From: a virus
Taxonomy: Duplodnaviria > Heunggongvirae > Uroviricota > Caudoviricetes
Virus record (IMG/VR): IMGVR_UViG_3300043418_000226
DNA length: 64,000 nt
Reading direction: 5' to 3' (one strand)
Part shown: piece after piece, positions 10,542 through 35,352 of the stretch
Position numbering within the stretch: the first letter of the stretch is position 1
Layout of the letters: each line of letters begins with the position of its first letter
The notes under the pieces: model-generated
Seen by the model: only the letters and a program-made list of their open reading frames with translations
Databases searched by the model: none
Told to the model about the DNA's origin: nothing
Position numbers and translations under genes: made by a program

Positions 10542-12074
10542 TTAGTTGATTCTAATCGATTTATTTAAAATGTCTTCTTCAACTGAATTATAAAGTTCCA
10601 TAAATTTAATGTAATTTGGGTCACTTTGAACCAACGGACCCATTAAATTATGGTGATGACCGTTCAATAACTCAACTAATGAACGAATTAAATTTAATAG
10701 ATTTTCACCTCTAACAGTCGAAAATGTGTTAGGTTCGATATCTTTTAAGTAATTTTCTTGTGTTAATTCGTATTTGTTTAAATTAAAAAAATCGATTGGT
10801 GTTTTAGTATTAGTAATATCTGTCGATAAAAGATAAATTTTGTCCGATTTTAATGCTGAAAATGATTGTTCCATATTACTTTGGGATTCGGTTAAAATCA
10901 TTTCGGTTTTTGGCACTTCCTTTTCAGGTGCACTGAAACTACTATGTGAATAAACCAACCCATGTTCAGGTCCGACATTGAGCGCTAAACTAATCTTATT
11001 GAATATTTTAACTCTATTTTGAAATTCATCATTGTTATTTAACACCCTGGTTCTACATTCTTCGGTTGGTCTAAAATAAAATGGGTGTAAATCCTCATTT
11101 TTATGTGGTAAAATTGAACTGAAAACCGATAAATTGTCGGATGTGTGTATTTTTTTAAATGCATCTCTTATAGTTGCCGATGTGTCGTTAACACCGGAAA
11201 CCGCAAGACTGAATGTGTGACCGGTAAATTCAGTTCCCGTAATTAGTTGGGTGTATCCGGTTAATAATTGTGCAGAATATAATTCGGGGTTATTTGTTTT
11301 ATAAATGTCTCCGTATTTTTTCTTATCTTTCTCTGAAAATCCATTTATAAGGTACACGTAAAAATCAACCGAAGAATCTGTTCCAGAAAAATCTAACACA
11401 TCGTATTCAATAATAGCCTTTAAATCTCTAACCTCAATTGACTTACTAGTACTTGTACTTTTAATGTACTCTTGTTTCTGTGGATATTTTTTTAAATAGA
11501 GTACGGACGACTTGTCGGCCATTAATGGTTGGGAAGCTAACGTAACTCGTTGCTTTGGAGTTGACCCTTCCTTAGATATTAATTTACCTCCTCTTAATTG
11601 TAAACCATTTTCTGTAAAAATAACATCCGAACCATATTTTCCATAAATGGCATAATCGGTATATTTTGCAATCGAACCTTTAGCCTTAGGGTTTTTCATT
11701 TCCCCATTTTCTTCAACAACAGGTTCACCGTGTTTTACAACCGAACCATATGTGGTGAATTCAATCTGTGCAGTATGTGTTTGACCATTAAAATCGTGAA
11801 TTGTTGTAAATGGTCCAGATATGTATTCAGAATTGGCAAAATCTTTTTCGTCATTATAATTTATGATTTTTACGGCCTGACCTATCTCAGGTATAAAATT
11901 AATATTTAAAGGTAGAAATGGAGTTGCCGTGAATAAATCTTTATCACCCCAATTGGTATAATCCATTGCAGTTTCAATCGTACCCGGATTAGTACTGTAT
12001 CGTTTAAAACGTATACGACCTAAACCTCTAGGGTCTTTATTATCGGTACAAATTGCAATGTCAATTAGTTTCAT
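10542..12074 (-). CDS. Baseplate central spike (gp5/VgrG-like N-terminal OB fold; C-terminal His cluster)
   Basis: N-terminal IAICTDNKDPRGLGRIR and PFLP..IPEIGQAVKI match the gp5 OB-fold pattern. The C-terminal NGHHHN resembles the HxH metal-binding apex of spikes. Confidence 0.65.
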   Translation of the reverse strand: MKLIDIAICTDNKDPRGLGRIRFKRYSTNPGTIETAMDYTNWGDKDLFTATPFLPLNINFIPEIGQAVKIINYNDEKDFANSEYISGPFTTIHDFNGQTHTAQIEFTTYGSVVKHGEPVVEENGEMKNPKAKGSIAKYTDYAIYGKYGSDVIFTENGLQLRGGKLISKEGSTPKQRVTLASQPLMADKSSVLYLKKYPQKQEYIKSTSTSKSIEVRDLKAIIEYDVLDFSGTDSSVDFYVYLINGFSEKDKKKYGDIYKTNNPELYSAQLLTGYTQLITGTEFTGHTFSLAVSGVNDTSATIRDAFKKIHTSDNLSVFSSILPHKNEDLHPFYFRPTEECRTRVLNNNDEFQNRVKIFNKISLALNVGPEHGLVYSHSSFSAPEKEVPKTEMILTESQSNMEQSFSALKSDKIYLLSTDITNTKTPIDFFNLNKYELTQENYLKDIEPNTFSTVRGENLLNLIRSLVELLNGHHHNLMGPLVQSDPNYIKFMELYNSVEEDILNKSIRIN

Positions 12075-12271
12075 TTCTTGATTCTTTTTTGTGCTTCTAA
12101 ATTCACTTTATTATATAGGGTCTCAACACTATCCATATGTCTTGTTAAGTCAACAATTAATTTTTTTGTTTTTTCGTATTCAGTATATAACTCATTTATT
12201 GCCATAAATAAATCTTTGTTTGATTTATTTTCAACATCATTCGCAATATCTAATAATTTTTCTTTTACCAT
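12071..12271 (-). CDS. Small coiled-coil hypothetical protein
   Basis: 66 aa; overlaps the spike gene start by 4 nt. Confidence 0.55.
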   Translation of the reverse strand: MVKEKLLDIANDVENKSNKDLFMAINELYTEYEKTKKLIVDLTRHMDSVETLYNKVNLEAQKRIKK

Positions 12272-24256: not shown

Positions 24257-24309
24257 CTATTTTACTTTTTATATAAATATCAAATCTTATGAAAGATATT
24301 TATATAATC

Positions 24310-25359
24310 ATGGCTAATCAAAATATTTTAGGTTTTTACGGTACAAAATTGGATTTAAAACTAGATTATTCCGAATTATATGACTTTGAATTATCAAAAG
24401 TTCAAGGAGATTATAACTCAGATGTCTTAGATTTAACAAATCCGATTGTATATTCGGGGTTAACGGTTGATTCTGAATGTAGAACATCGTTTACGACCCC
24501 GTGGACAATTAACATTAACGAACCTTATGTTGTTGATAATTGTCACATATTTTTAAATAAAAGAACTCAAAAAGGGTGGACATTAGATTTTGTGTTTAGT
24601 GGTATTACTACCGGTTCAACTTTTTATTATTGGGGAATTAAAAATGAAACGGATTTTCATAATTTAGGAGATAACAATCTTTCTTTTGGTTTTACAGATG
24701 ACCATAGAATTGAATGGTCCGCATTTAGATATTCAGGACATTGTGACTCAACATCGGGTTATACAGAGAGTTTTTACCTCTCAACGGGTCAAACACCGAC
24801 ATTATGTACCAATGGTATTTCGGGTGATTTCAATGTAACAATAACTTTTGATAGATATAAACACTATGAAGATTGTGATATTGAAAATGAAGGTGGTCAT
24901 AACGATTTAGTTACAGGATGGACAGTTACAAACCCAATCGAATCATTATCGGGAGCAACCGAATCATTTACTATCGTTGAGACATTAAATAAGAAATGGT
25001 CAGATGAAAGGGAAAAAAGATTAGGTACATTAAAAATATACCTTAATGGTAATGTTATATATAAGATAAAGGATTGGGAGGAGGTAATTCCTTCACCGAG
25101 AAATTCAAGTAACTCTATTTCACAGATTTGGGGTAAAGATTTATCTACCTATGTAATAAAAAGGGTTAAATATTTTGAAGATCCGTTAGATTTTGTACAT
25201 GTGAGACACCATTATCTCACCTCAACTAAACCATTCTATTCAATAAACAAATGTCAACAAGAATGTATCCAAGATATTATGGGGTTTTATGATAACCCAT
25301 TATTACAAGAAAATGGAGATGTTTTATTGACGGAAGACAACGATATACTACTTTATTAA
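24310..25359 (+). CDS. Virion structural protein (beta-sandwich/LamG-like)
   Basis: Probable start MANQNILG at 24310, just after TATTTATA. Ends in LLQENGDVLLTEDNDILLY. Confidence 0.5.
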   Translation: MANQNILGFYGTKLDLKLDYSELYDFELSKVQGDYNSDVLDLTNPIVYSGLTVDSECRTSFTTPWTININEPYVVDNCHIFLNKRTQKGWTLDFVFSGITTGSTFYYWGIKNETDFHNLGDNNLSFGFTDDHRIEWSAFRYSGHCDSTSGYTESFYLSTGQTPTLCTNGISGDFNVTITFDRYKHYEDCDIENEGGHNDLVTGWTVTNPIESLSGATESFTIVETLNKKWSDEREKRLGTLKIYLNGNVIYKIKDWEEVIPSPRNSSNSISQIWGKDLSTYVIKRVKYFEDPLDFVHVRHHYLTSTKPFYSINKCQQECIQDIMGFYDNPLLQENGDVLLTEDNDILLY

Positions 25360-25372
25360 ACTATTTATAAAC

Positions 25373-27088
25373 ATGGCAGGTAAAAAAATATCACAATTAT
25401 CAAGTTCACTATCACCGAGTCTATCGGGGTTTACTGCAGTGGCAGACGGTGGAGTAACATATAAATCATCATTAGAAACGTTGAGAAACGTTTTAGTTGA
25501 TAGTGGTTCCCATGTTTTCACGGGTAATCAAACAATAAAAGGAAACTTAACTGTAAGTGGCTCATTAACTGCCGAAGAATATATTTTAAGTTCATCAATT
25601 ACTAATATAGTATTAGAGACAATTAGTGGTTCATCTCATTTTGGTAACGATTTCAATGATGTACATAATTTCACCGGTAGTGTCAATATCACCGGTTCAT
25701 TAAATGTAGACAATTTAGGTACCATAACCCAATTAGTTGTGGGTCAACCACCATTTGAGGAATTAGGTCATGAAGCACTACATGTCGGTACAATTGATGA
25801 CACTAGTATAGCTCACTTTGAGGGTAATAATAATATTTTTACACAAATCAACGTACGAAATCGAAATTCGGGTTCATTTGCAAGTTCTGACATTGTTGCA
25901 ACTGCAGATAATGGAGACGACTTTATTCACTATGTTGATTTAGGTATCAACTCGTCGACATATAATGGCGGATTTGTTGGTTTGGCCGATGATTCATATT
26001 TGTTAAACGTTGGTAAAGATATGTATATCGGTACCGTAGGAGGGGTTAACTTTCCGGCAAAATTAAAATTATTTGCCGAGAATTCATGGGAAAATCCACA
26101 AATAACAATTAGTGGATCAAATCAAATTTCATTTAATACCGGTTCAGTTTCAAACGGTTTTCAAGTTGAAATTAGTGGTAGTGTTAAATTTGACCACGAT
26201 GTTGAAATTGTGTCGGGTTTAACCGCAACAACCGCCATTATTGGTATAGGGAATTTAGAACCATCTAACCACGAATCGTTACATGTCGAAAATAGTGGTA
26301 GTTTGAATATATCTCACTTTCAAGGAAACACAGATACGTTTACTCAAATTAATTTAAAAAACATTAATAGTGGTTCATCCGCAAGTGGGGATATTGTTAT
26401 CACCGCAGATAATGGTGACGATTCTATCCATTTTGTTGATTTAGGTATTAACTCGTCGACATATAATGCGGGATTTGTTGGTCGTGAAAATGATTCATAT
26501 TTAATTAATGCAGGTAAAGATTTATTTATAGGTACAATTGGGGGGGTTAACCATCCCGATACAAAATTACATTTATTCGCACAAAATAATTGGGAAAATT
26601 CACCTTTAATTATTAGTGGATCAAATCAAATTTCATTTAATACCGGTTCAGTTTCAACAGGATATGTATATGAATTTAGTGGTAGTGCGAAATTACAAAA
26701 TGACGTTACCGTTGATGGGGAATTATCTATTGGCGGTGTAACTGAAAGAATAGTACTTGAGGTTAGTGGAGGTACATCAACGTATGAGTTTGATTATCTT
26801 AGTGGGTCGATTTTCTACTTAACAAGTTCTTTAGATAATAACATTTATAATACGTCTAATATACCGACTGAAGATTTAAAGGCACATTCACTTACATTCC
26901 TTATAAAACAAGAATCGACACCATATATTGCATCTTCATTTAAATTAAACAATGATGTGGTGTCAGTTAATTGGGCAAATAATGAAATGCCGACAGGTAG
27001 TTCAAATAAAACAGACGTAATAGGGTTAACCGCACTTAGAATTGGTTCATCTTGGAATGTCTTAGGAACTTTTACAACATTTGGATAA
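25373..27088 (+). CDS. Tail fibre-like protein with an internal 168-aa duplication
   Basis: MAGKKISQL start and G/S/T/N-rich beta repeats. The DNGDD..H.VDLGINSSTY..GFVG block occurs twice. Confidence 0.65.
   Translation: MAGKKISQLSSSLSPSLSGFTAVADGGVTYKSSLETLRNVLVDSGSHVFTGNQTIKGNLTVSGSLTAEEYILSSSITNIVLETISGSSHFGNDFNDVHNFTGSVNITGSLNVDNLGTITQLVVGQPPFEELGHEALHVGTIDDTSIAHFEGNNNIFTQINVRNRNSGSFASSDIVATADNGDDFIHYVDLGINSSTYNGGFVGLADDSYLLNVGKDMYIGTVGGVNFPAKLKLFAENSWENPQITISGSNQISFNTGSVSNGFQVEISGSVKFDHDVEIVSGLTATTAIIGIGNLEPSNHESLHVENSGSLNISHFQGNTDTFTQINLKNINSGSSASGDIVITADNGDDSIHFVDLGINSSTYNAGFVGRENDSYLINAGKDLFIGTIGGVNHPDTKLHLFAQNNWENSPLIISGSNQISFNTGSVSTGYVYEFSGSAKLQNDVTVDGELSIGGVTERIVLEVSGGTSTYEFDYLSGSIFYLTSSLDNNIYNTSNIPTEDLKAHSLTFLIKQESTPYIASSFKLNNDVVSVNWANNEMPTGSSNKTDVIGLTALRIGSSWNVLGTFTTFG
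25770..26660. repeat. Two diverged ~400-bp coding repeats at 504-bp offset
   Basis: AGTGGATCAAATCAAATTTCATTTAATACCGGTTCAGTTTCAAC occurs at 26111 and 26615; boundaries are approximate. Confidence 0.8.
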
Positions 27089-27094
27089 TATATT

Positions 27095-28396
27095 ATGATA
27101 AGTCAAGTATCATCTCGAGTCGGTGCAGGTAGAATTTTTGTTATCAAAAAAAATAATGAGGGTATAACACCAACACCAACACCAACGCCAACAATTCATA
27201 TTCCTGATAATGATTTTGTTTACTTATTATTACCAAATAACGATTTAACATATACATTAATTCCCGCAAATGATTTAATTGATACTTTAATTCCTGATAA
27301 TGATTTATTATTTACATTAGTACCTAATGGGGAGTTAACTTATGTTTTATTACCCGATAACGATGTTAATTATACATTAATACCTAATACAGATTTAACA
27401 TACACATTAATACCTAATAATGATGTTCAATATACCGTATTAAAACCACCAACAACATTTTTTGGATTAATAAAAATTGGTGAGGGTATGGATGTTTGTA
27501 ATGGTGGTCCAGAATACACCACCTTCTATGTAACAGGGGATGGCCCAACTTTCTGTGAATCAACTAACTTTGTATCAAACGGATTTATTGGTTTAAATGG
27601 TTACATATCCGCATACTATGGTGGTTATGTTATGACCATTAACGTAAACGGTACTGATATTGGGACTCAAAGAGAAGTTTGTTCACCATGTCCAACACCG
27701 GAACCCTTTTCAATAAGAAAAATAGTTAATTTAAACATTAATGATTATTCGTCATACAGTTATGGGTTATCAACAATTACAGATTTATTGGGTGGTACAA
27801 ACGCATCTTTAATTAATTCCCCATCTTATAGTAATGGGTCCGGTTGCGGTTCAAATATTACATTAGACGGCACAACACAATTTATAATTACAGACACTTC
27901 ATTGTCAAATTATTATACAATTTCACCAAACCCATCTGATACTTCAGTATTTCTTTGGGTTTATTTAACCGATAATGGAGTGATATTGTCCGAACAAGGT
28001 TCAACATCTTTGAACACTAGTTGGCACGATTCACAAATTGAATTGGTTAATGGGTCGTTGAGATTTTCAGTTTGGCCACTTACTAATGTAATAACCTCAT
28101 CAATTTCAACACCACTAAATAATTGGCATTACATTGGTTTTACATATAGTGGAACAACTTTAACTGCTTATGTTAATGGTCAAAATGCTGGAACAACAAG
28201 TTTTGTCAGAGAAACACCTTACCAAAATAATAATAATTTATATTATGCCATCGGAGCCGAAGACACCACAACTTTAGGAGACGGTAGTTATTCATCATTA
28301 ATATTTGGACAATTAGAAATTTGGAATGGGTCAATCTCATCTTCAGACGTGTTGACAAATTATAATAACAATGTTAACAATTGGATATGTCACTAA
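27095..28396 (+). CDS. Fibre/adhesin with PT linker, 10-aa repeats and C-terminal LamG/ConA-like domain
   Basis: TPTPTPTPT, eight (I/L/V)PxNDxxYTL repeats, and the LamG-type WHYIGFTYSGTTLTAYVNG. Confidence 0.7.
   Translation: MISQVSSRVGAGRIFVIKKNNEGITPTPTPTPTIHIPDNDFVYLLLPNNDLTYTLIPANDLIDTLIPDNDLLFTLVPNGELTYVLLPDNDVNYTLIPNTDLTYTLIPNNDVQYTVLKPPTTFFGLIKIGEGMDVCNGGPEYTTFYVTGDGPTFCESTNFVSNGFIGLNGYISAYYGGYVMTINVNGTDIGTQREVCSPCPTPEPFSIRKIVNLNINDYSSYSYGLSTITDLLGGTNASLINSPSYSNGSGCGSNITLDGTTQFIITDTSLSNYYTISPNPSDTSVFLWVYLTDNGVILSEQGSTSLNTSWHDSQIELVNGSLRFSVWPLTNVITSSISTPLNNWHYIGFTYSGTTLTAYVNGQNAGTTSFVRETPYQNNNNLYYAIGAEDTTTLGDGSYSSLIFGQLEIWNGSISSSDVLTNYNNNVNNWICH
27200..27439 (+). repeat. Eight tandem 30-bp (10-aa) coding repeats
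   Basis: IPDNDFVYLL LPNNDLTYTL IPANDLIDTL IPDNDLLFTL VPNGELTYVL LPDNDVNYTL IPNTDLTYTL IPNNDVQYTV. Confidence 0.9.
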
Positions 28397-28517
28397 CCAA
28401 CATAGTGAGGTTTGAATTCAAGTATAATTGGTAGGTAAAGAACGGTGAAAAAATAAAATAACAAATAACAAAAGATACAACAAAATAAAGTATTTATAAT
28501 AGATTAAATTTTAAACT

Positions 28518-30611
28518 ATGGCAGTAGGAGCAAGAATTACAAGTGCAAACTTAAGTGGTAAAACGGCAACAGTTACGTTTACACCATATACAGGGCAAAC
28601 ATCAGGTACCACGGTAAACCTTGGGTCTAAGACAATTCCTTTCAATAACATTACATCACACCCATATGGTGACTATAATCTTTACTTTGCGGAGTATGAT
28701 TACACATACACGTTAAACATACCCGAACCAGTTATAGATTCGCAATTGTATGTTTATATAAGTAAAATGGTAAACGATAACAACTATGGCGCCGCAACCC
28801 TTAACTTTAATGATTTTACCGCAACGGTGATTGATTTGAATGTTGATACTAACCAATATTACATTAGTGATTTACATCCATTAACAAACTCTGGATTTGG
28901 TTACCATTTTACAGGGCAAAATAACAATAATGACCATTTAATCATTTTTACCGACGCTTCTAATACTGAAATAGGTCGTTATAGCGGAACAACAGGTGGT
29001 TATGATTTTTCTGATTTAGACGGTAGATGGAATATATTTGTTGATTATGAAAATGGTGTTATCAAATATTCTAACGGTATAGATGTTTATACATATGAAT
29101 TTGATAGTAATAGATATTCATTAGATATTCAATGGGATTATGATTCAACAATGTCAAACGGATCATTTATTATTATAAAATATGACGAATCTCAGGGAAT
29201 TGACCATCACGCAGTTTTATTTAAGTCAGACGGTACTCAAACAACATTAAAATCTTGGACAAATGGAGATTATGTTGATTACAACTTCCAATTACAATTT
29301 AGTAATGACACTTTTGTTGTTGAGAATTATGATACCGACAATAATCAATTTAGAGGACTTGAAATATGTGGTCTTGATGGAACAGTATTAGAAACTGTTA
29401 CATTTGGTGATGCGGTATATAACTGTAGAGAGTATGACTTCTATGGTGATAACAAATATTTTAATATTTTCTATAATTGTAACGATAATAATGTTAATTA
29501 CGCAATAATTCATTATAATTTTAATACAACAACACTAATTCAAACATCTCACGAAAGAGGTACCAATTATAACAATTTCAATTGGAGAAGTGATAATAAT
29601 TTTTGGCCAAATGAAAACTTAGTCGAAAATTTAGTACTAAGTTTTCATAGTAACTGGAATAACTGGTCTAACTTTGGTCCTGATGTAGATTATTTAGATT
29701 TTATGTACATATTTGGTAATCAATCATCCTTTACAACATACCAATTCGCAACCGGTTCAACTGTAAATATATATCCTTGGTTAGACCAAACGGGGTCTAA
29801 TATGTTTAGAGGTAAATGTAATACCGGAGATGGTGTTGCTTCAGTATTAACAATCACTTCAGGTGCCACTCACATTGAAAGTTTAAACATACCCATTAGT
29901 GGTATATACAATGACAACTATTGGAGTATTGACGATAGAACTGTTTATAGTTTTTATACTGACCAAGATTATACTGGTTTTACAATGACTTTAATTGGAT
30001 TAACAGGTGGTACACAAGACACAAAAAACTTAACTTTTAATAATGCTTACGGAGATAACACGTCTAGAAGTCAATACAAAACATTCTATTTTGGGGCTAA
30101 CACAGTTGCAAATGGAAATGAGGGTTGGTATTTAAATGATAACACAACAGGGTTTACATCAACAGGTTTTTATTATTGGCAAAATAATTCTGACCAATTT
30201 TATACACCAACATTTTTACAAAATTCCGATATGGTATTATACCATTATGGTGATAATGTTGCTAGAGTTTTAACCGCGACAGGTATTTCTAATGAATTCT
30301 CATTATCCGCTTGGAACACAAATAAAGGTATTGAAGTTGGTGATAGTATGTTTATACATTATTATAACGACCCTCAGAATAATTATTATCACGTTAAGTT
30401 ATATGACTTTGAAGGAACATTGATTAATACATTAGACACTACATTTACCGATTATAATGATATGATAGCAATAAAAGATAGATTTGTTGCACGTTTCTAT
30501 GATGGTACAAATTATGTAATGTATATGATAAGTGCCGATAGTATTCAAAGCGTTTCATTGGCCGATTTCAACACCTATGATACCTCTAACGATTACATTT
30601 GGTGGGATTAA
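28518..30611 (+). CDS. Large Asn/Tyr/Asp-rich beta-structured virion protein (possible propeller / receptor-binding protein)
   Basis: 697 aa with beta-strand periodicity; preceded by TATTTATA; inside the fibre cluster. Confidence 0.5.
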   Translation: MAVGARITSANLSGKTATVTFTPYTGQTSGTTVNLGSKTIPFNNITSHPYGDYNLYFAEYDYTYTLNIPEPVIDSQLYVYISKMVNDNNYGAATLNFNDFTATVIDLNVDTNQYYISDLHPLTNSGFGYHFTGQNNNNDHLIIFTDASNTEIGRYSGTTGGYDFSDLDGRWNIFVDYENGVIKYSNGIDVYTYEFDSNRYSLDIQWDYDSTMSNGSFIIIKYDESQGIDHHAVLFKSDGTQTTLKSWTNGDYVDYNFQLQFSNDTFVVENYDTDNNQFRGLEICGLDGTVLETVTFGDAVYNCREYDFYGDNKYFNIFYNCNDNNVNYAIIHYNFNTTTLIQTSHERGTNYNNFNWRSDNNFWPNENLVENLVLSFHSNWNNWSNFGPDVDYLDFMYIFGNQSSFTTYQFATGSTVNIYPWLDQTGSNMFRGKCNTGDGVASVLTITSGATHIESLNIPISGIYNDNYWSIDDRTVYSFYTDQDYTGFTMTLIGLTGGTQDTKNLTFNNAYGDNTSRSQYKTFYFGANTVANGNEGWYLNDNTTGFTSTGFYYWQNNSDQFYTPTFLQNSDMVLYHYGDNVARVLTATGISNEFSLSAWNTNKGIEVGDSMFIHYYNDPQNNYYHVKLYDFEGTLINTLDTTFTDYNDMIAIKDRFVARFYDGTNYVMYMISADSIQSVSLADFNTYDTSNDYIWWD

Positions 30612-30638
30612 TTAAATTAAAACAAAAGAAACAAAGAT

Positions 30639-30887
30639 ATGAAAGTAGTAAATTTAGATATTAAAATGTTAAAGAAAAGTGATAACCAATTCGCACAAAG
30701 AAAATCGGTTATCATTAAACCAACTGAAACAACAACAGTTGCCGACATTAAAAACGCAGTTAAAGACGAAATAAAATTTCCTTTTGAAAAAGAAAAAGAA
30801 GAATTTTATTATATGTCAAAAGAATTAAAAGATACTGATATTGTTCCAAATATGTCAGGTAACGAATATATTATAACATTCAAGTAA
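30639..30887 (+). CDS. Small protein with ubiquitin-like (beta-grasp) sequence pattern
   Basis: TTVADIKNAVKDEIKFP...FYYMSKELKDTDIV aligns by eye with ubiquitin DTIENVKAKIQDKEGIP...LIFAGKQLEDGRTL. There is no C-terminal GG. Confidence 0.5.
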   Translation: MKVVNLDIKMLKKSDNQFAQRKSVIIKPTETTTVADIKNAVKDEIKFPFEKEKEEFYYMSKELKDTDIVPNMSGNEYIITFK

Positions 30888-31255
30888 TGGAATTTTTTAT
30901 CAGACAAGGGTCGACGGATCCAATTTTAAAAATGAGAATGGTAGATGACGGTAAAAACGATAAGTCATCCTTTAATGATATGTTAGAAAATTCTAACATT
31001 ACTTTTGAAATGTACGATGTTAACTCGGGAGATGCCGTTATATTGGATGGTCAATGTAACATAACAACCAGAACAAAACACTATAATCAAACCACAGATG
31101 AATTTTATATTGTTTACAGGTTTACGGAACAACAAACATCCGAGATTGGAAAATTTGAGGGTAAAATAACAATTCAATTTTTAGATACTAACCTTAACCC
31201 GACCACAAAACTTATTTTGCCGGTTAAGGAAAAATTATATATTAATATTTTTTAG
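30887..31255 (+). CDS. BppU N-terminal-like Ig-fold tail/baseplate protein
   Basis: MEFFIRQGSTDPILKMRM...G.FEGKITIQF pattern; coupled to the upstream stop via TAATG. Confidence 0.55.
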   Translation: MEFFIRQGSTDPILKMRMVDDGKNDKSSFNDMLENSNITFEMYDVNSGDAVILDGQCNITTRTKHYNQTTDEFYIVYRFTEQQTSEIGKFEGKITIQFLDTNLNPTTKLILPVKEKLYINIF

Positions 31256-31345: not shown

Positions 31346-34243
31346 ATGAAAGAAGTTATCTCACAGGAAGTTATCGAAAACTTTCTGAATGGGGGGGACG
31401 ATGAAAAATACATCGTTGGTGTCGAATATGACTACCCCACAAATTCCATTTCCAAAATCATTCAGGACCCTGAAAGGGGTAAAATTGTTAAGACAGATTC
31501 ATTCGTCCCATTCTTATGGGTTGGAGATTTATCGAGTCTTAATTTTTATAGTGGTTCTAAGGCAACTCAAAAGAAAATGATGAGTAAGTGCGGTATTATT
31601 ATTGAAAAATTAGAAACATACGGAGATGAACGTATGGAGAACGGTTTAAAATATTTAGTTAAAAGTATTAAAAGTTATACCGATTTAATAAATTTCTTCA
31701 AAACGGGCGGACTTGACCCATGGGGAGAGGAAACAAGAAAATATTTTACCATTTTATCTCCAGTTGAACAGTACTTAGTTCAAACAAAAAAACGACTATT
31801 CAAAGGTATCGAAGACTATAACGGTGTTTATCGATTTGTATTCGATATTGAGACTACGGGATTAGACCCTGAAACTTGTAAAATCATATTGATTGGAGTT
31901 AAGGATAATCGTGGTCTTAATGAAACTATTAGTGCATTTGGTGAAGACGGTGAAAAGGATTGTATTATAAGATTTTTCAAATACATTAGTGATTTAAAAC
32001 CCACAATCGTTGCCGGTTATAACTCGGCTTTCTTTGACTTTCCATTCATTCTTAAAAGAGCACAAATTTTAGGGATAGATGTCGGACAATTAACCCAAAT
32101 TTTTACAGGTACTGGAATCAAAGAAAAGAAGGGTATGTTAAAATTAGCCAATGAGATTGAAGATTATACTCAACACGTTATTTGGGGATTTAACATTATA
32201 GATATTGCTCACTCTGTTCGTAGAGCTCAGGCAATTAATTCCGAGATTAAGTCATGGGGTTTAAAGTACATCACAACTTATTTAGAAAAAGAAAAGGAAA
32301 ATCGTATTTACGTTGAGGGTAGTCAAATTTCAAAAATATATCTTGATAACGAAAGTTATTACGTGAATCCTAAAACAGGTGGATATAAAAAAATCGGTGA
32401 ACCTGGTACTGAAAATCTATTGGATAGGTTCCCCGGTAAATTTGAAATTTGGACAGGTAGGAAAATTGTAGAACAATATCTAGACGATGACCTTTATGAA
32501 ACTATGGTCGTGGACGATAGTTTCAGTCAATCAACATTCTTAATATCTAAATTGGTACCCACAACCTATGAAAGGGTTGCAACAATGGGTACGGCCACAT
32601 TATGGAAAATTATCATGTTAGCATGGTCATATGAGAATAACTTAGCAATCCCATCTAAAGATGAGAAGAGACCATTTACGGGTGGTTTGTCTCGTTTGTT
32701 AAATGTTGGTTACGCTAAGAATATTGTTAAGTTTGACTACTCTTCACTTTACCCGTCTATTCAGTTAGTTTACGATGTGTTTCCTGATTGTGATGTTATG
32801 GGTGTACAAAAATCTATGTTAAAGTATTTCCGTAACATTCGTATCAAATACAAACATCTAGCGGGGGAATTAAAAGATAGTGACCCTGTACAATCAGAGA
32901 TGTATGACCGTAAACAATTACCGATTAAAATTTTTATCAACGCATATTTTGGTTCATTATCGGCACCTCACGTTTTTCCATGGGGAGAAATGGATTCAGG
33001 AGAAACTATTACTTGTATCGGTCGTCAATGTTTACGTATGATGATTATGTTTTACATGAAGAAAGGTTACAAACCTCTCGTAATGGATACAGATGGTGTT
33101 AACTTTGAAACACCTGAAAGTGCAAAGGATACTGTCTACATTGGTAAGGGTTTAAACGAATTAGTTATTGAGGGTAAAGAATATCATGGTATTGAGGCAG
33201 ATACCGCGGAATTTAACGATATCTTTATGAGAAATGAGATGGGATTAGACATTGATTATACTGCACCGTCTTGTATAAATGTGTCTCGTAAAAACTACAT
33301 CATTAAATTAGTTAAGAAAGGTAAAGAGAAAATTAAATTAACAGGAAATACAATTAAATCAAAAAAGTTACAAACATATGTTGTTGAATTTTTAGATGAA
33401 GGTTTGAAATATTTACTTGCGGGTGATGGGTTATCGTTTCTTGAATTGTACTATGATTATGTGGAAAAAATTTATAACAAAGAAATCCCACTTTCTAAAA
33501 TTGCAAACAAAGCACGTGTTAAACAATCGGTAAAAGATTATAAATTGTATGTACAAAAAAGAACTAAATCGGGTTCTTTAATGTCAAGACAGGCCCATAT
33601 GGAATTAGTCGTTGCGGGTGACTATCCTGCAGGTCTTGGAGATACGATTTACTATGTTAACAATGGTGATAAAAAATCTTCGGGGGATGTTCAAAGAATA
33701 ACAAAACCAACCAAAAAACAACAAGAAGATTATCTTGCAAAGTATGGTACCCAAATACCGGAAGATTATATCCAAATTAATTGTTATATGATTGATGAAA
33801 AGGAAATAACAAACAACCCCGACTTAAAAGGTGATTACAATGTTGCAAGGTATCTTAATAATTTTAATAAAAGAGTAGAACCGTTGTTAGTAGCATATAA
33901 CCCTTCGATTCGTGAAGATATTTTAATTGAAGACCCAAAAGACAGACAGTATTTTACTAAAACTCAATGTGAGCTCGTTAATGGATTTCCTTTAAAAGAG
34001 AGTGGTCAAGATAAGTTTGATGAGGTTATGACACTATCTGATAGTGAGGTTGTGTTTTGGAACCGAATTGGACGTGACCCATTCTTTATGTATGTTGAGG
34101 ATAGTCTTTCACTTGTTGACCCGTATTGGGTTGATTATAATAGAAAAGTTTTAGCATTACAAGCAAAAAGCACCGTTAGTAATGAAGATGAAATTCTTGG
34201 AACTAACGATGCTGATTTAAATTTATTGGCAATTGAAAATTAG
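31346..34243 (+). CDS. gp43: Family B DNA polymerase with 3'-5' exonuclease
   Basis: FDIETTG (ExoI), YNSAFFDFPF (ExoII), DYSSLYPS (motif A), KIFINAYFG (motif B) and MDTDGV (motif C). Confidence 0.96.
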   Translation: MKEVISQEVIENFLNGGDDEKYIVGVEYDYPTNSISKIIQDPERGKIVKTDSFVPFLWVGDLSSLNFYSGSKATQKKMMSKCGIIIEKLETYGDERMENGLKYLVKSIKSYTDLINFFKTGGLDPWGEETRKYFTILSPVEQYLVQTKKRLFKGIEDYNGVYRFVFDIETTGLDPETCKIILIGVKDNRGLNETISAFGEDGEKDCIIRFFKYISDLKPTIVAGYNSAFFDFPFILKRAQILGIDVGQLTQIFTGTGIKEKKGMLKLANEIEDYTQHVIWGFNIIDIAHSVRRAQAINSEIKSWGLKYITTYLEKEKENRIYVEGSQISKIYLDNESYYVNPKTGGYKKIGEPGTENLLDRFPGKFEIWTGRKIVEQYLDDDLYETMVVDDSFSQSTFLISKLVPTTYERVATMGTATLWKIIMLAWSYENNLAIPSKDEKRPFTGGLSRLLNVGYAKNIVKFDYSSLYPSIQLVYDVFPDCDVMGVQKSMLKYFRNIRIKYKHLAGELKDSDPVQSEMYDRKQLPIKIFINAYFGSLSAPHVFPWGEMDSGETITCIGRQCLRMMIMFYMKKGYKPLVMDTDGVNFETPESAKDTVYIGKGLNELVIEGKEYHGIEADTAEFNDIFMRNEMGLDIDYTAPSCINVSRKNYIIKLVKKGKEKIKLTGNTIKSKKLQTYVVEFLDEGLKYLLAGDGLSFLELYYDYVEKIYNKEIPLSKIANKARVKQSVKDYKLYVQKRTKSGSLMSRQAHMELVVAGDYPAGLGDTIYYVNNGDKKSSGDVQRITKPTKKQQEDYLAKYGTQIPEDYIQINCYMIDEKEITNNPDLKGDYNVARYLNNFNKRVEPLLVAYNPSIREDILIEDPKDRQYFTKTQCELVNGFPLKESGQDKFDEVMTLSDSEVVFWNRIGRDPFFMYVEDSLSLVDPYWVDYNRKVLALQAKSTVSNEDEILGTNDADLNLLAIEN

Positions 34244-35352
34244 ATTACATTATATGGTGTAGGCATTGCTCTATATTTTAACGCTTTATTAAGATTCTCC
34301 GCTTCGTTACCTTTCCTTTCAAGGATTTTATCGGGGCGGAGTCTTTCTAAACGAGCCATAAGTTCTTCAACTAATTTCATTTTTTCATCTTTACCTTCAG
34401 TAATTAATGATTGATAATCTAATTTGATTTGACTATCCGGTACCTGTAAATCACCTGAAAATTTACCCCATATTCTTCCTAAACCTTCTTTAGAATAAGC
34501 GATAAGATATTTTCTTACCCAGTTCTGTGATGGTTTATTTAATTTATCCCACGTTAATACTTCAGTCATAACATCGGAAGGTAATTTAATTACATCTTTA
34601 TTTTTTTGTAAACAAGTATCTCTATCTGTAGTTTCATAATACCAATACCAAACTTGGGTATTGTTAGCTATTGAACCAAAATCATATTTACCACCCGGTA
34701 CATTGTAAAGGTGTACTATTTTAGTGCCGTTAGGACCTGCAGTTATTCTATATGTTAAATCCCCACCGATTAAACGGTTTTTGAGGTTTCTATCTTGCAT
34801 CCTTAATAATAAGTCAAAAGCCGGCATCATAAAATAATTACCTGAACTACCTATTTGTCCATAACCACCAACTCCACCGAATCCTCCTCCACCGATTCCT
34901 CCAAACCCACCTAAGAATGGGTCAATAATTGAATCTCGTAATTCAGCTCGACTAAACCATAAAAGTTCGTTTATTTCTCGACCCGCAGGAATAACATAAG
35001 TTTGAGTTCCTCCACTTAATGTGAAAAAATCTTTTTTTAGTTCACTGTCACCTCCCGTTTGTAAACCAACAATTTTAGAATACGAATGTGTGTATTGTGT
35101 TTCGTAATCTAAACTTCTTGTGGTAAATGCTCTCGATAAAGATTGAGTGTCGACATCAAGTCCTGCTAATCCTGACCATTGTGATTCAATTAACCAATCA
35201 CTAACATATTGGTCATATTCTGAAATGGCTAAATCTAAAAAAGTGTCCATTTGTTCTTCTGTTAATTCTATACCACGAACTGGCATACCTAAAAGGTGAA
35301 ACACCTGAGTGTATAGTTTTTCTTTTTCTTCTGATGAAATAATTGTTCCCAT
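34240..35352 (-). CDS. Neck/head-completion protein (T4 gp13-like)
   Basis: N-terminal LLGMPVRGIELTEEQMDTFLDLAISEY resembles the gp13 LG.PVI.VE.T.EQ pattern. Confidence 0.7.
   Translation of the reverse strand: MGTIISSEEKEKLYTQVFHLLGMPVRGIELTEEQMDTFLDLAISEYDQYVSDWLIESQWSGLAGLDVDTQSLSRAFTTRSLDYETQYTHSYSKIVGLQTGGDSELKKDFFTLSGGTQTYVIPAGREINELLWFSRAELRDSIIDPFLGGFGGIGGGGFGGVGGYGQIGSSGNYFMMPAFDLLLRMQDRNLKNRLIGGDLTYRITAGPNGTKIVHLYNVPGGKYDFGSIANNTQVWYWYYETTDRDTCLQKNKDVIKLPSDVMTEVLTWDKLNKPSQNWVRKYLIAYSKEGLGRIWGKFSGDLQVPDSQIKLDYQSLITEGKDEKMKLVEELMARLERLRPDKILERKGNEAENLNKALKYRAMPTPYNVI

Follow-up and report, generated by a model that had tools for sequence, protein, structure and literature searches.

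A ubiquitin-fold protein without a diglycine tail and its probable partnership with an upstream β-propeller protein in T4-type jumbo phages

Results

The Ubl gene and its locus

The 64,000-nucleotide stretch analysed here (the window; IMG/VR record IMGVR_UViG_3300043418_000226) comes from an uncultured tailed phage and carries a small gene for a stand-alone ubiquitin-like protein (Ubl), directly preceded by a gene that encodes a 697-residue protein with a β-propeller region. The T4-type genes for portal, prohead protease, gp23 capsid, sheath, tube, baseplate and gp13 neck proteins are all found in the window, together with gp32, UvsX-like, RNase H and DnaB-like genes, and the recorded contig of the 697-residue protein measures 319,332 bp. 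The central features are as follows.

28518..30611, + strand: gene of the 697-residue protein, the conserved and probable partner of the Ubl, with an N-terminal β domain (residues ~1-85) and a β-propeller region (~90-697) ending in a conserved ND.I.WWD motif (synteny, AlphaFold2 model, co-divergence)
30612..30638, + strand: 27-nt A-rich spacer from the propeller stop to the Ubl start (sequence)
30639..30887, + strand: gene of the 82-residue stand-alone ubiquitin-fold (β-grasp) protein (open reading frame and translation, homologues, AlphaFold2 model, structural matches, hhalign)

The open reading frame (ORF) of the Ubl starts with ATG, comprises 82 codons and stops with TAA, exactly as in the original prediction, an earlier reading of the DNA that had also quoted its sequence. 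The final A of its TAA is also the first base of the next ORF (30887-31255), which starts with ATG, and the two together form the TAATG overlap noted in that reading. On the other side, the stop of the 697-codon ORF is separated from the Ubl start by the 27-nt spacer; a terminator scan found none between positions 28830 and 31500, and so none in this spacer.

The Ubl ORF is a real and conserved gene. A word-indexed search retrieved 57 homologous proteins of 80-83 residues at 49-96% identity, and an exhaustive profile search against 1.8 billion cluster representatives yielded 28 clusters, mostly of stand-alone proteins of 80-88 residues, with the wider family reaching down to 25% identity. The homologues all reside on metagenomic or viral contigs of uncultured phages, several of them 200-330 kb in length. 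Searches of the deposited phage genomes (INPHARED) at the DNA level and by tblastn, using the region, the Ubl, a distant Ubl member and the 697-residue protein as queries, gave no usable match, and a pattern scan of ~185,000 bacterial and archaeal genomes revealed no relative. In addition, NCBIfam contains no match for the Ubl, a Ubl-protease fusion, the propeller protein or the 122-residue protein encoded downstream, and PHROGs gave nothing significant for the proteins of the Ubl gene cluster. The comparisons that follow draw on 45 loci from metagenomes and IMG/VR, with 28 distinct Ubl locus sequences and 43 aligned Ubl members.

Overall structure of the Ubl

The AlphaFold2 model of the Ubl, computed on the family alignment, has a predicted local distance difference test (pLDDT) value of 92.7 and a predicted template modelling (pTM) score of 0.83. 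It displays the element order β-β-α-β-β-β, with strands at residues 4-12, 20-26, 51-58, 61-63 and 75-81 and a helix at residues 34-44 that packs across the mixed β-sheet, as expected of the ubiquitin topology. These elements agree with the topology that the original prediction had drawn by eye.

Structural similarity search of the model against the PDB using Foldseek revealed that the top matches are all domains of the ubiquitin superfamily, with E-values down to 9e-4 and template modelling (TM) scores of 0.5-0.6. They include the UBL domain of HOIL-1L (E 9e-4), ubiquitin, NEDD8, a ubiquitin-like protein of Bacteroides fragilis and the ubiquitin of Caldiarchaeum. VIA, an independent all-against-all aligner, returned the kindlin F0 domain (Z 8.5), the TINCR Ubl (8.0), the Raf RBD (7.9) and Fubi (7.6), with a root-mean-square deviation (RMSD) of 1.9-2.4 Å across 63-77 residues; these Z scores are close to the noise ceiling of the tool (7-8), and the match list belongs uniformly to one superfamily. 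Even higher TM scores (0.72-0.75) were obtained with two uncharacterised proteins encoded by uncultured tailed phages. Altogether, the modelled fold of the Ubl is ubiquitin-like (β-grasp), and the three structural tests (AlphaFold2, Foldseek and VIA) bear out the fold that had been proposed from the letters alone.

Sequence comparisons point in the same direction at lower scores. Against the ubiquitin family PF00240, the window Ubl (P0001) scores 15.0 bits (E 0.021), below the gathering threshold of 25.4 bits, and 13 of the 43 members match this family singly at E<=0.05, the best with an E-value of 9.1e-5. The best Pfam match of the Ubl is the DIX domain (PF00778; 19.3 bits, E 0.001), which again stays below its gathering threshold (22.2 bits) and is matched by 10 of the 43 members at E<=0.05; apart from PF00240 and DIX, no family recurs among the members. 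The structure of the Dvl1 DIX domain matches the Ubl less well than Ubls do (TM 0.41). Alignment of the Ubl family by hhalign against repeats cut from PF00240-positive proteins gave a probability of 89.8% and an E-value of 1.8e-6, covering 46 columns from strand 2 to strand 4. The helix segment TTVADIKNAVKDEIKFP is thereby placed on the ubiquitin helix and FYYMSKELKD on the LIFAGKQLED-type segment, in the same register as in the original alignment by eye. We regard the Ubl as probably a remote homologue of the ubiquitin family, and not as a member of it by the Pfam threshold.

The exhaustive profile search also gave matches to poly-ubiquitin with E-values of 1e-6 to 3e-4. These were rejected as a sign of strong homology, because per domain they represent summed weak repeats in which single domains score at most 13 bits; one of them is an unrelated repetitive protein, and the poly-ubiquitin matches were kept as weak support.

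Sequence conservation and the C-terminus

The Ubl chain ends directly after strand 5. In the 28 distinct locus sequences, the stand-alone members end with h-x-h-K followed by the TAA stop, and the terminal Lys is aligned with R72 of ubiquitin, the LRGG tail being absent. A terminal Gly or GG is found in none of the 28 locus sequences and in none of the 43 aligned members, so that the lack of a C-terminal diglycine, claimed earlier for the window protein, extends to the family, which does not possess the tail of a conjugatable Ubl. E1-dependent conjugation requires a C-terminal Gly, which is invariant in BilA (10.1101/2023.09.04.556158); lacking it, the Ubl is incapable of canonical conjugation. 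At least 90% of the members retain the C-terminal Lys, also at loci without an overlapping downstream gene, and it is therefore not a by-product of the TAATG overlap.

The helix and the FYY..K.L.D positions were expected to be conserved in the original prediction. This holds for the helix Lys (K38) and the K.L.D motif: even homologues of as little as 25% identity retain them, and L63 and D65 are conserved at 90% or more. The most conserved half of the Ubl comprises residues 47-82, with the acidic residues E50/E54 and D65/D67 in addition to N75 and K82. No E1, E2, JAB or peptidase was detected by Pfam and PHROGs among 37 ORFs of the window, a scan covering part of the ORFs of the window and of the ~319-kb genome, and none is recorded within 4-10 kb of the Ubl in 15 loci, except for the protease of one fusion lineage.

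Structure of the upstream propeller protein

The AlphaFold2 model of the 697-residue protein (pLDDT 91.5, pTM 0.83) is all-β and composed of four-stranded repeats, with an N-domain (~1-85) of lower confidence. No match to the protein exists in Pfam, PHROG or NCBIfam. Structural similarity search showed that the model resembles tandem or many-bladed propellers with Z scores of 11-12, including LRP6, the WD40 pairs of the SSU processome, the nine-bladed eIF3b, DPP4 and prolyl oligopeptidase; given the high RMSD of these matches, only the architecture is common to them.

The N-terminal ~70 residues are the best conserved part of the protein. The same N-domain (~70 residues) also heads a 365-residue protein (L035:6702-7800) and a 404-residue protein (L023:3251-4460), and it occurs as an 87-residue stand-alone ORF (L001:8922-9185). 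Its recurrence looks like the pattern expected of a portable virion-attachment module on exchangeable host-recognition proteins. A further variant is the 1188-residue propeller homologue of locus L016 (L016:4001-7567), in which the N-domain is replaced by a 560-residue extension and the propeller, including the region of the interface predicted below, is kept.

Co-divergence of the Ubl and the propeller protein

At every locus that has upstream sequence, a propeller homologue ends 16-52 nt before the Ubl, and this synteny holds down to 34% identity of the propeller and ~30% of the Ubl. Insertions are present at three loci, all of them downstream of the Ubl and none between the two genes. In 19 non-redundant genomes, the pairwise divergence of the Ubl is strongly correlated with that of the propeller protein (r=0.89, Spearman 0.88, Mantel p=2e-4); the partial correlation is 0.89 when PolB and the 122-residue protein are controlled for, and the correlation is 0.88-0.94 once outlier genomes are dropped. 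In the same genomes, the divergence of the Ubl is uncorrelated with that of the 122-residue protein (0.06) and of PolB (-0.02). Identity to the proteins of the window amounts to 41-50% for the propeller protein and 39-85% for the Ubl, compared to 73-90% for PolB. The pace of evolution of the two genes is far above that of PolB and resembles that of host-range modules.

Synteny and co-divergence together indicate that the Ubl and the propeller protein make up one fast-evolving unit, the boundary of which lies exactly at the Ubl stop codon. The Ubl thus displays the arrangement typical of downstream-encoded chaperones, in which a small gene sits directly downstream of that of its client and the two are exchanged together. 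The original prediction had laid stress on the coupling to the downstream “BppU-like” gene, an emphasis that was misplaced: the conserved and co-evolving partner is the upstream protein of ~690 residues, and the insertions split the Ubl from the downstream gene only.

Predicted complex of the Ubl and the propeller protein

Prediction of the complex from both family alignments gave a score of 0.67, compared to 0.01 for the best of three controls. The score mark is reached by 58 of 80 solved complexes and by 2 of 110 mismatched pairs, counts that apply only roughly here, the alignments being custom ones. At least 4% of the contacts are common to the runs, and the pLDDT of the partner is at least 65. 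In the best run, the hairpin of strands 1 and 2 of the Ubl (residues 1-9 and 16-25), in addition to the loops 59-60 and 72-74, contacts about ten propeller segments within residues 163-470. From the model it looks as if the Ubl docks onto a face or cleft of the propeller, with no involvement of the N-domain.

Binding of the Ubl to the N-domain of the 697-residue protein, a guess from locus L016, had also been considered; it was dropped as the leading interpretation, the complex model placing the Ubl on the propeller blades.

A Ubl-protease fusion

One lineage encodes the Ubl as part of a larger protein. P0083 (303 residues; L001:8001-8912, also in L002 and L003) consists of a Ubl, a Lys-rich linker and a Peptidase_C1-like domain, the papain-type motifs of which are intact (Q..C136, H248 and N268-S-W-G). 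On three independent contigs (47 kb, 183 kb and 6.5 kb), its gene directly follows a homologue of the propeller gene. No homologue of the protease domain was found in the window or at the other loci. From this fusion it seems that the Ubl can act as a docking module to which a payload is attached.

Comparison with known systems

A Ubl encoded in a phage tail cluster has been known since 2006 from TAPI. In phages lambda and T1, TAPI is a ThiS/MoaD-like Ubl with a conserved C-terminal Gly, a Gly-rich linker and a TAPI-C domain, flanked by TAPK (JAB/NlpC) and TAPJ (PMC1779556). It was reported to be absent from the mature tail (PMC1779556), which fits a role in assembly. Both TAPI and the present Ubl are phage proteins of ubiquitin fold, encoded in a tail or host-specificity cluster beside a host-specificity protein, which in our case is a putative one. 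Both also have a link to a papain-fold peptidase in some members, namely the NlpC/P60 domain of TAPK and the Peptidase_C1-like fusion P0083. However, they differ greatly in other respects. Compared to TAPI, the Ubl of 80-83 residues is nearer to ubiquitin proper and to DIX, ends in Lys and possesses neither a linker nor a second domain, and no JAB was found with it. It follows a β-propeller protein instead of a gpJ-type fibre, in T4-type jumbo phages, and is flanked by the propeller protein and the 122-residue protein, with no JAB or NlpC neighbour. Moreover, Lambda_tail_I (PF06805) has no match to the Ubl at E<=1, nor to the 43 members at E<=0.05, which sets the family apart from TAPI. The Ubl lacks every defining feature of TAPI, in addition to the C-terminal Gly of a conjugatable Ubl.

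T4 gp38 and the Tfa proteins of phages Mu and P2 are fibre chaperones encoded downstream of their clients. Chaperones of receptor-binding proteins (RBPs) or fibres that lie directly downstream of the client have also been described for Alteromonas phage V22 (gp27), for phage A5 (gp9) (PMC7289586, PMC10579305) and for Pam3 (PMC9608196). The present Ubl is similar to them in that its small gene lies directly downstream of a fast-evolving putative host-recognition gene, is exchanged and co-evolves with it, and encodes a protein predicted to bind the client. Nevertheless, the known chaperones adopt other folds and act on trimeric fibres, whereas here a ubiquitin fold meets a β-propeller client and the chaperone is putative only. 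The Ubl matches no known chaperone family in Pfam, PHROG or NCBIfam, and the combination of a ubiquitin fold with a β-propeller client is not reported for downstream fibre chaperones in the literature searched.

In eukaryotes, WD40 β-propellers such as those of COPI and PLAA recognise ubiquitin non-covalently (PMC5663479, PMC5420347). The predicted complex is reminiscent of this recognition, as a ubiquitin-fold protein would dock on the loops of successive propeller blades. It differs in the surface used, which comprises the hairpin of strands 1-2 and two loops and not the equivalent of the I44 patch, and there is no evidence that the propellers are homologous; the likeness is one of analogy only.

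BilA contains two Ubl domains with an obligatory C-terminal Gly and works with E1, E2 and deubiquitinase (DUB) partners, and the Bil system acts on phage tail fibres (10.1101/2023.09.04.556158; PMC11601603). The present Ubl has the ubiquitin fold and the prokaryotic or viral setting in common with BilA and BubA; the two Ubl domains of BilA and its terminal Gly are not present here, and E1/E2/DUB partners were not found among the scanned neighbouring genes. Ubiquitin-fold proteins of phages are now usually read in the light of the Bil, Bub and CBASS defences, and the Ubl described here represents a different use. As a fixed, co-evolving partner of a putative host-recognition protein, the tail-less ubiquitin fold probably reflects a use that is older than defence.

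Proposed role of the Ubl

We propose that the Ubl is a non-covalent, dedicated partner of the upstream propeller protein, which the synteny and co-divergence make probable and for which the complex model suggests a mode of binding. The propeller protein (~690 residues), with a portable virion-attachment N-domain followed by the propeller, would belong to a fast-evolving host-recognition cluster of a ~319-kb T4-type phage. The propeller and Ubl genes would be co-transcribed late, and the Ubl, not conjugatable with a chain that ends at the equivalent of ubiquitin R72, would then dock non-covalently onto the propeller. A component of the tail or host-recognition apparatus of this kind comes close to one of the options in the original prediction, that of a structural β-grasp tail subunit.

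Two versions of this partnership can be envisaged. By analogy, the Ubl might help its partner to fold or assemble, or cap it transiently, a version that we put forward tentatively because the downstream co-evolving fibre chaperones match it, as does lambda TAPI, a tail-cluster Ubl that is absent from the mature tail. It is conceivable, though rather doubtful, that the Ubl instead stays bound, a small adaptor subunit to which a payload could be attached; the protease fusion speaks for this version, as does the conserved face of the Ubl, which the modelled interface does not account for. In a more speculative picture, which has a modest chance of being right, the Ubl would be a portable, non-covalent docking tag for the propeller host-recognition protein on the virion of a T4-type jumbo phage, a counterpart of the recognition of ubiquitin by WD40 propellers. 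The fast-evolving propeller would be matched by the variable hairpin face of the tag, leaving the conserved acidic face to hold a conserved partner or payload, for instance an active papain-type protease that would be taken to the tail, as in the fusion lineage.

Several observations weigh against the proposed partnership. Among the three runs of the complex prediction (scores 0.00, 0.67 and 0.87), one failed. The predicted interface is not enriched in conserved positions (0.51 in the propeller interface vs 0.62 in the rest, and 0.54 vs 0.62 for the Ubl), in a comparison that is biased by the inclusion of buried residues. The most conserved half of the Ubl (47-82) is largely outside the modelled interface and could accommodate a second, conserved partner. 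The co-divergence of adjacent genes can, in part, result from their joint transfer as a cassette, in place of co-evolution at an interface. At locus L016, no Ubl ORF is detectable and the 122-residue gene directly follows the propeller gene; this single case shows that the propeller can exist without an adjacent Ubl and speaks against an obligate chaperone role. Moreover, we infer the location in the virion, the timing and the role as chaperone or adaptor, and a receptor-binding or baseplate function of the propeller protein is likewise deduced from its fold, its neighbours and its evolutionary rate.

If the proposal is right, a large clade of uncultured freshwater jumbo phages, the tail proteins of which are mostly unannotated, would possess in the Ubl a new type of RBP helper or adaptor. 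The Ubl would also be the second independent case, after lambda TAPI, of Ubl domains recruited to tail assembly, here without conjugation chemistry. A practical rule for the annotation and expression of propeller-type adhesins would follow, namely to co-express the downstream Ubl.

Alternative explanations

The Ubl might alternatively be a structural subunit of the virion that binds another conserved component, at the baseplate periphery or in the shared N-domain, and is co-inherited with the propeller as an exchangeable cassette. In favour of such a subunit, the most conserved surface of the Ubl (E50/E54, D65/D67, N75 and K82) is unused in the predicted propeller interface, and the best Pfam match, albeit below threshold (E 0.001), is DIX, a β-grasp domain that polymerises head to tail. 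The N-domain is portable and heads other proteins, and in L016, which keeps the propeller, the Ubl is lost and the N-domain replaced together, but L016 is a single observation. Against it, two of the three complex runs confidently place the Ubl on the propeller blades and leave the N-domain unused, and no Ubl gene of their own comes after those of the N-domain proteins without a propeller (365 residues in L035, 404 residues in L023). We consider this alternative unlikely.

The original prediction had first named a non-conjugatable decoy or inhibitor. In this reading, the tail-less Ubl would mimic a Ubl of a Bil, Bub or CBASS-type defence of the host and block an E1, E2 or deubiquitinase, thereby shielding the tail proteins from tagging. 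In its favour, the Ubl has a ubiquitin fold without a conjugatable C-terminus, Bil attaches its tag to a phage tail fibre, BilA depends on its C-terminal Gly (10.1101/2023.09.04.556158), and the Ubl gene evolves fast, as arms-race genes do. Moreover, 7 of the 43 Ubl members weakly match the PADLOC model PDC-M24A (best E 0.006, Ubl residues 33-67). The family nevertheless shows no significant similarity to any defence Ubl model, and its best structural matches are Ubl domains of eukaryotic type and not BilA or BubA. Nor does the gene behave as a sporadic accessory: it is fixed and syntenic in a presumably late structural cluster, and the papain-fusion form occupies the same structural position. 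In addition, the divergence of the Ubl is almost entirely explained by that of one phage protein (r=0.89), which would be unexpected for a mimic of host enzymes. The decoy thus found little to sustain it and appears quite improbable. PDC-M24A itself is an uncharacterised defence-candidate model of 148 positions, which may simply contain a Ubl-like segment.

To our knowledge, conjugation through a C-terminal Lys is without precedent. A non-canonical covalent or processed modifier that acts via this Lys or a papain-type enzyme, and not via E1/E2, is most improbable: the Lys is kept in 90% or more of the members independently of the overlapping gene, a Ubl-papain protease fusion with intact Cys-His-Asn motifs exists, and a link between Ubl and papain-fold peptidase was proposed for lambda TAPI and TAPK (PMC1779556), but the Ubl has no flexible tail past strand 5 to reach an active site, and neither the scanned ORFs of the window nor the 4-10 kb around the gene at other loci hold an E1, E2, JAB or peptidase, bar one fusion lineage.

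Neighbouring genes

The Ubl lies near the end of a run of + strand genes (24289-31255) that includes those of a 571-residue protein, a 433-residue LamG protein, the 697-residue propeller protein, the Ubl and the 122-residue protein; the run is followed by PolB and then by a gp13-like gene on the other strand. Features of three of these neighbours are as follows.

27095..28396, + strand: gene of the 433-residue protein with a C-terminal Laminin_G_3 (concanavalin-A-like lectin) domain (Pfam PF13385, E=2.5e-12)
30887..31255, + strand: gene of the 122-residue protein, its ATG overlapping the Ubl stop (TAATG), possibly a BppU_N-like anchor module
34240..35352, - strand: T4 gp13-like neck / head-tail adaptor gene (phrog_211, E=5e-11)

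The 433-residue LamG protein is a probable host-recognition protein, and LamG homologues of varying length are found upstream of the propeller-Ubl pair in relatives. The genes upstream of the pair differ in number and length among relatives, as is the case for host-recognition modules. Orthologues of the gp13-like gene in L004, L014 and L015 carry PF26809 (Phage_T4_gp13), and the presence of this neck gene marks the region as virion-structural. The “tail-fibre cluster” of the original prediction is thus a reasonable deduction from the lectin-type, propeller and gp13-like neighbours, short of a demonstration.

The 122-residue protein has no Pfam, PHROG or NCBIfam match, and its earlier designation as BppU-like finds no more than a lead in the ESM-Atlas feature search, where 7 of 30 matches fall in a cluster with BppU_N on 18% of its members. 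Its gene adjoins the Ubl only in the PolB-linked clade, is absent from distant lineages and is set apart from the Ubl by insertions of 0.8-4 kb in L018, L025 and L033. The 122-residue gene is an evolutionary unit other than that of the Ubl. In L007, a 779-residue protein (L007:1550-3889) has a homologue of the 122-residue protein (35% identity over residues 1-121) as its N-terminus, and its C-terminal part matches the LamG protein of the window. The 122-residue gene looks like a detached anchor module.

The LamG and 571-residue proteins both contain internal repeats. In the LamG protein (27095-28396, + strand), residues ~35-115 comprise a Thr-Pro run and then some eight degenerate 10-residue repeats with the pattern (L/I)(I/L/V)P.ND(L/V).(Y/F)TL, located before the lectin-type domain. 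The 571-residue protein (25373-27088, + strand) has an internal tandem duplication of ~190 residues, each copy with the motif SHF.GN...FTQIN..N.NSGS.AS.DIV.TADNGDD.IH.VDLGINSSTYN.GFVG. Its N-terminus resembles the KISQL-type start that we take to be common in phage fibre proteins.

In a sub-clade formed by L029, L035, L037, L038, L039 and L043, PolB is on the opposite strand relative to the Ubl and 122-residue genes (e.g. L035:10626-13502); the orientation of gp13 is unchanged there, and the change of PolB is a local inversion. Finally, two small ORFs with matches to Cas12f1-like_TNB (PF07282) are located a few kb downstream of the Ubl in the structural region of a distant relative (L008:10649-10897 and 12045-12246).

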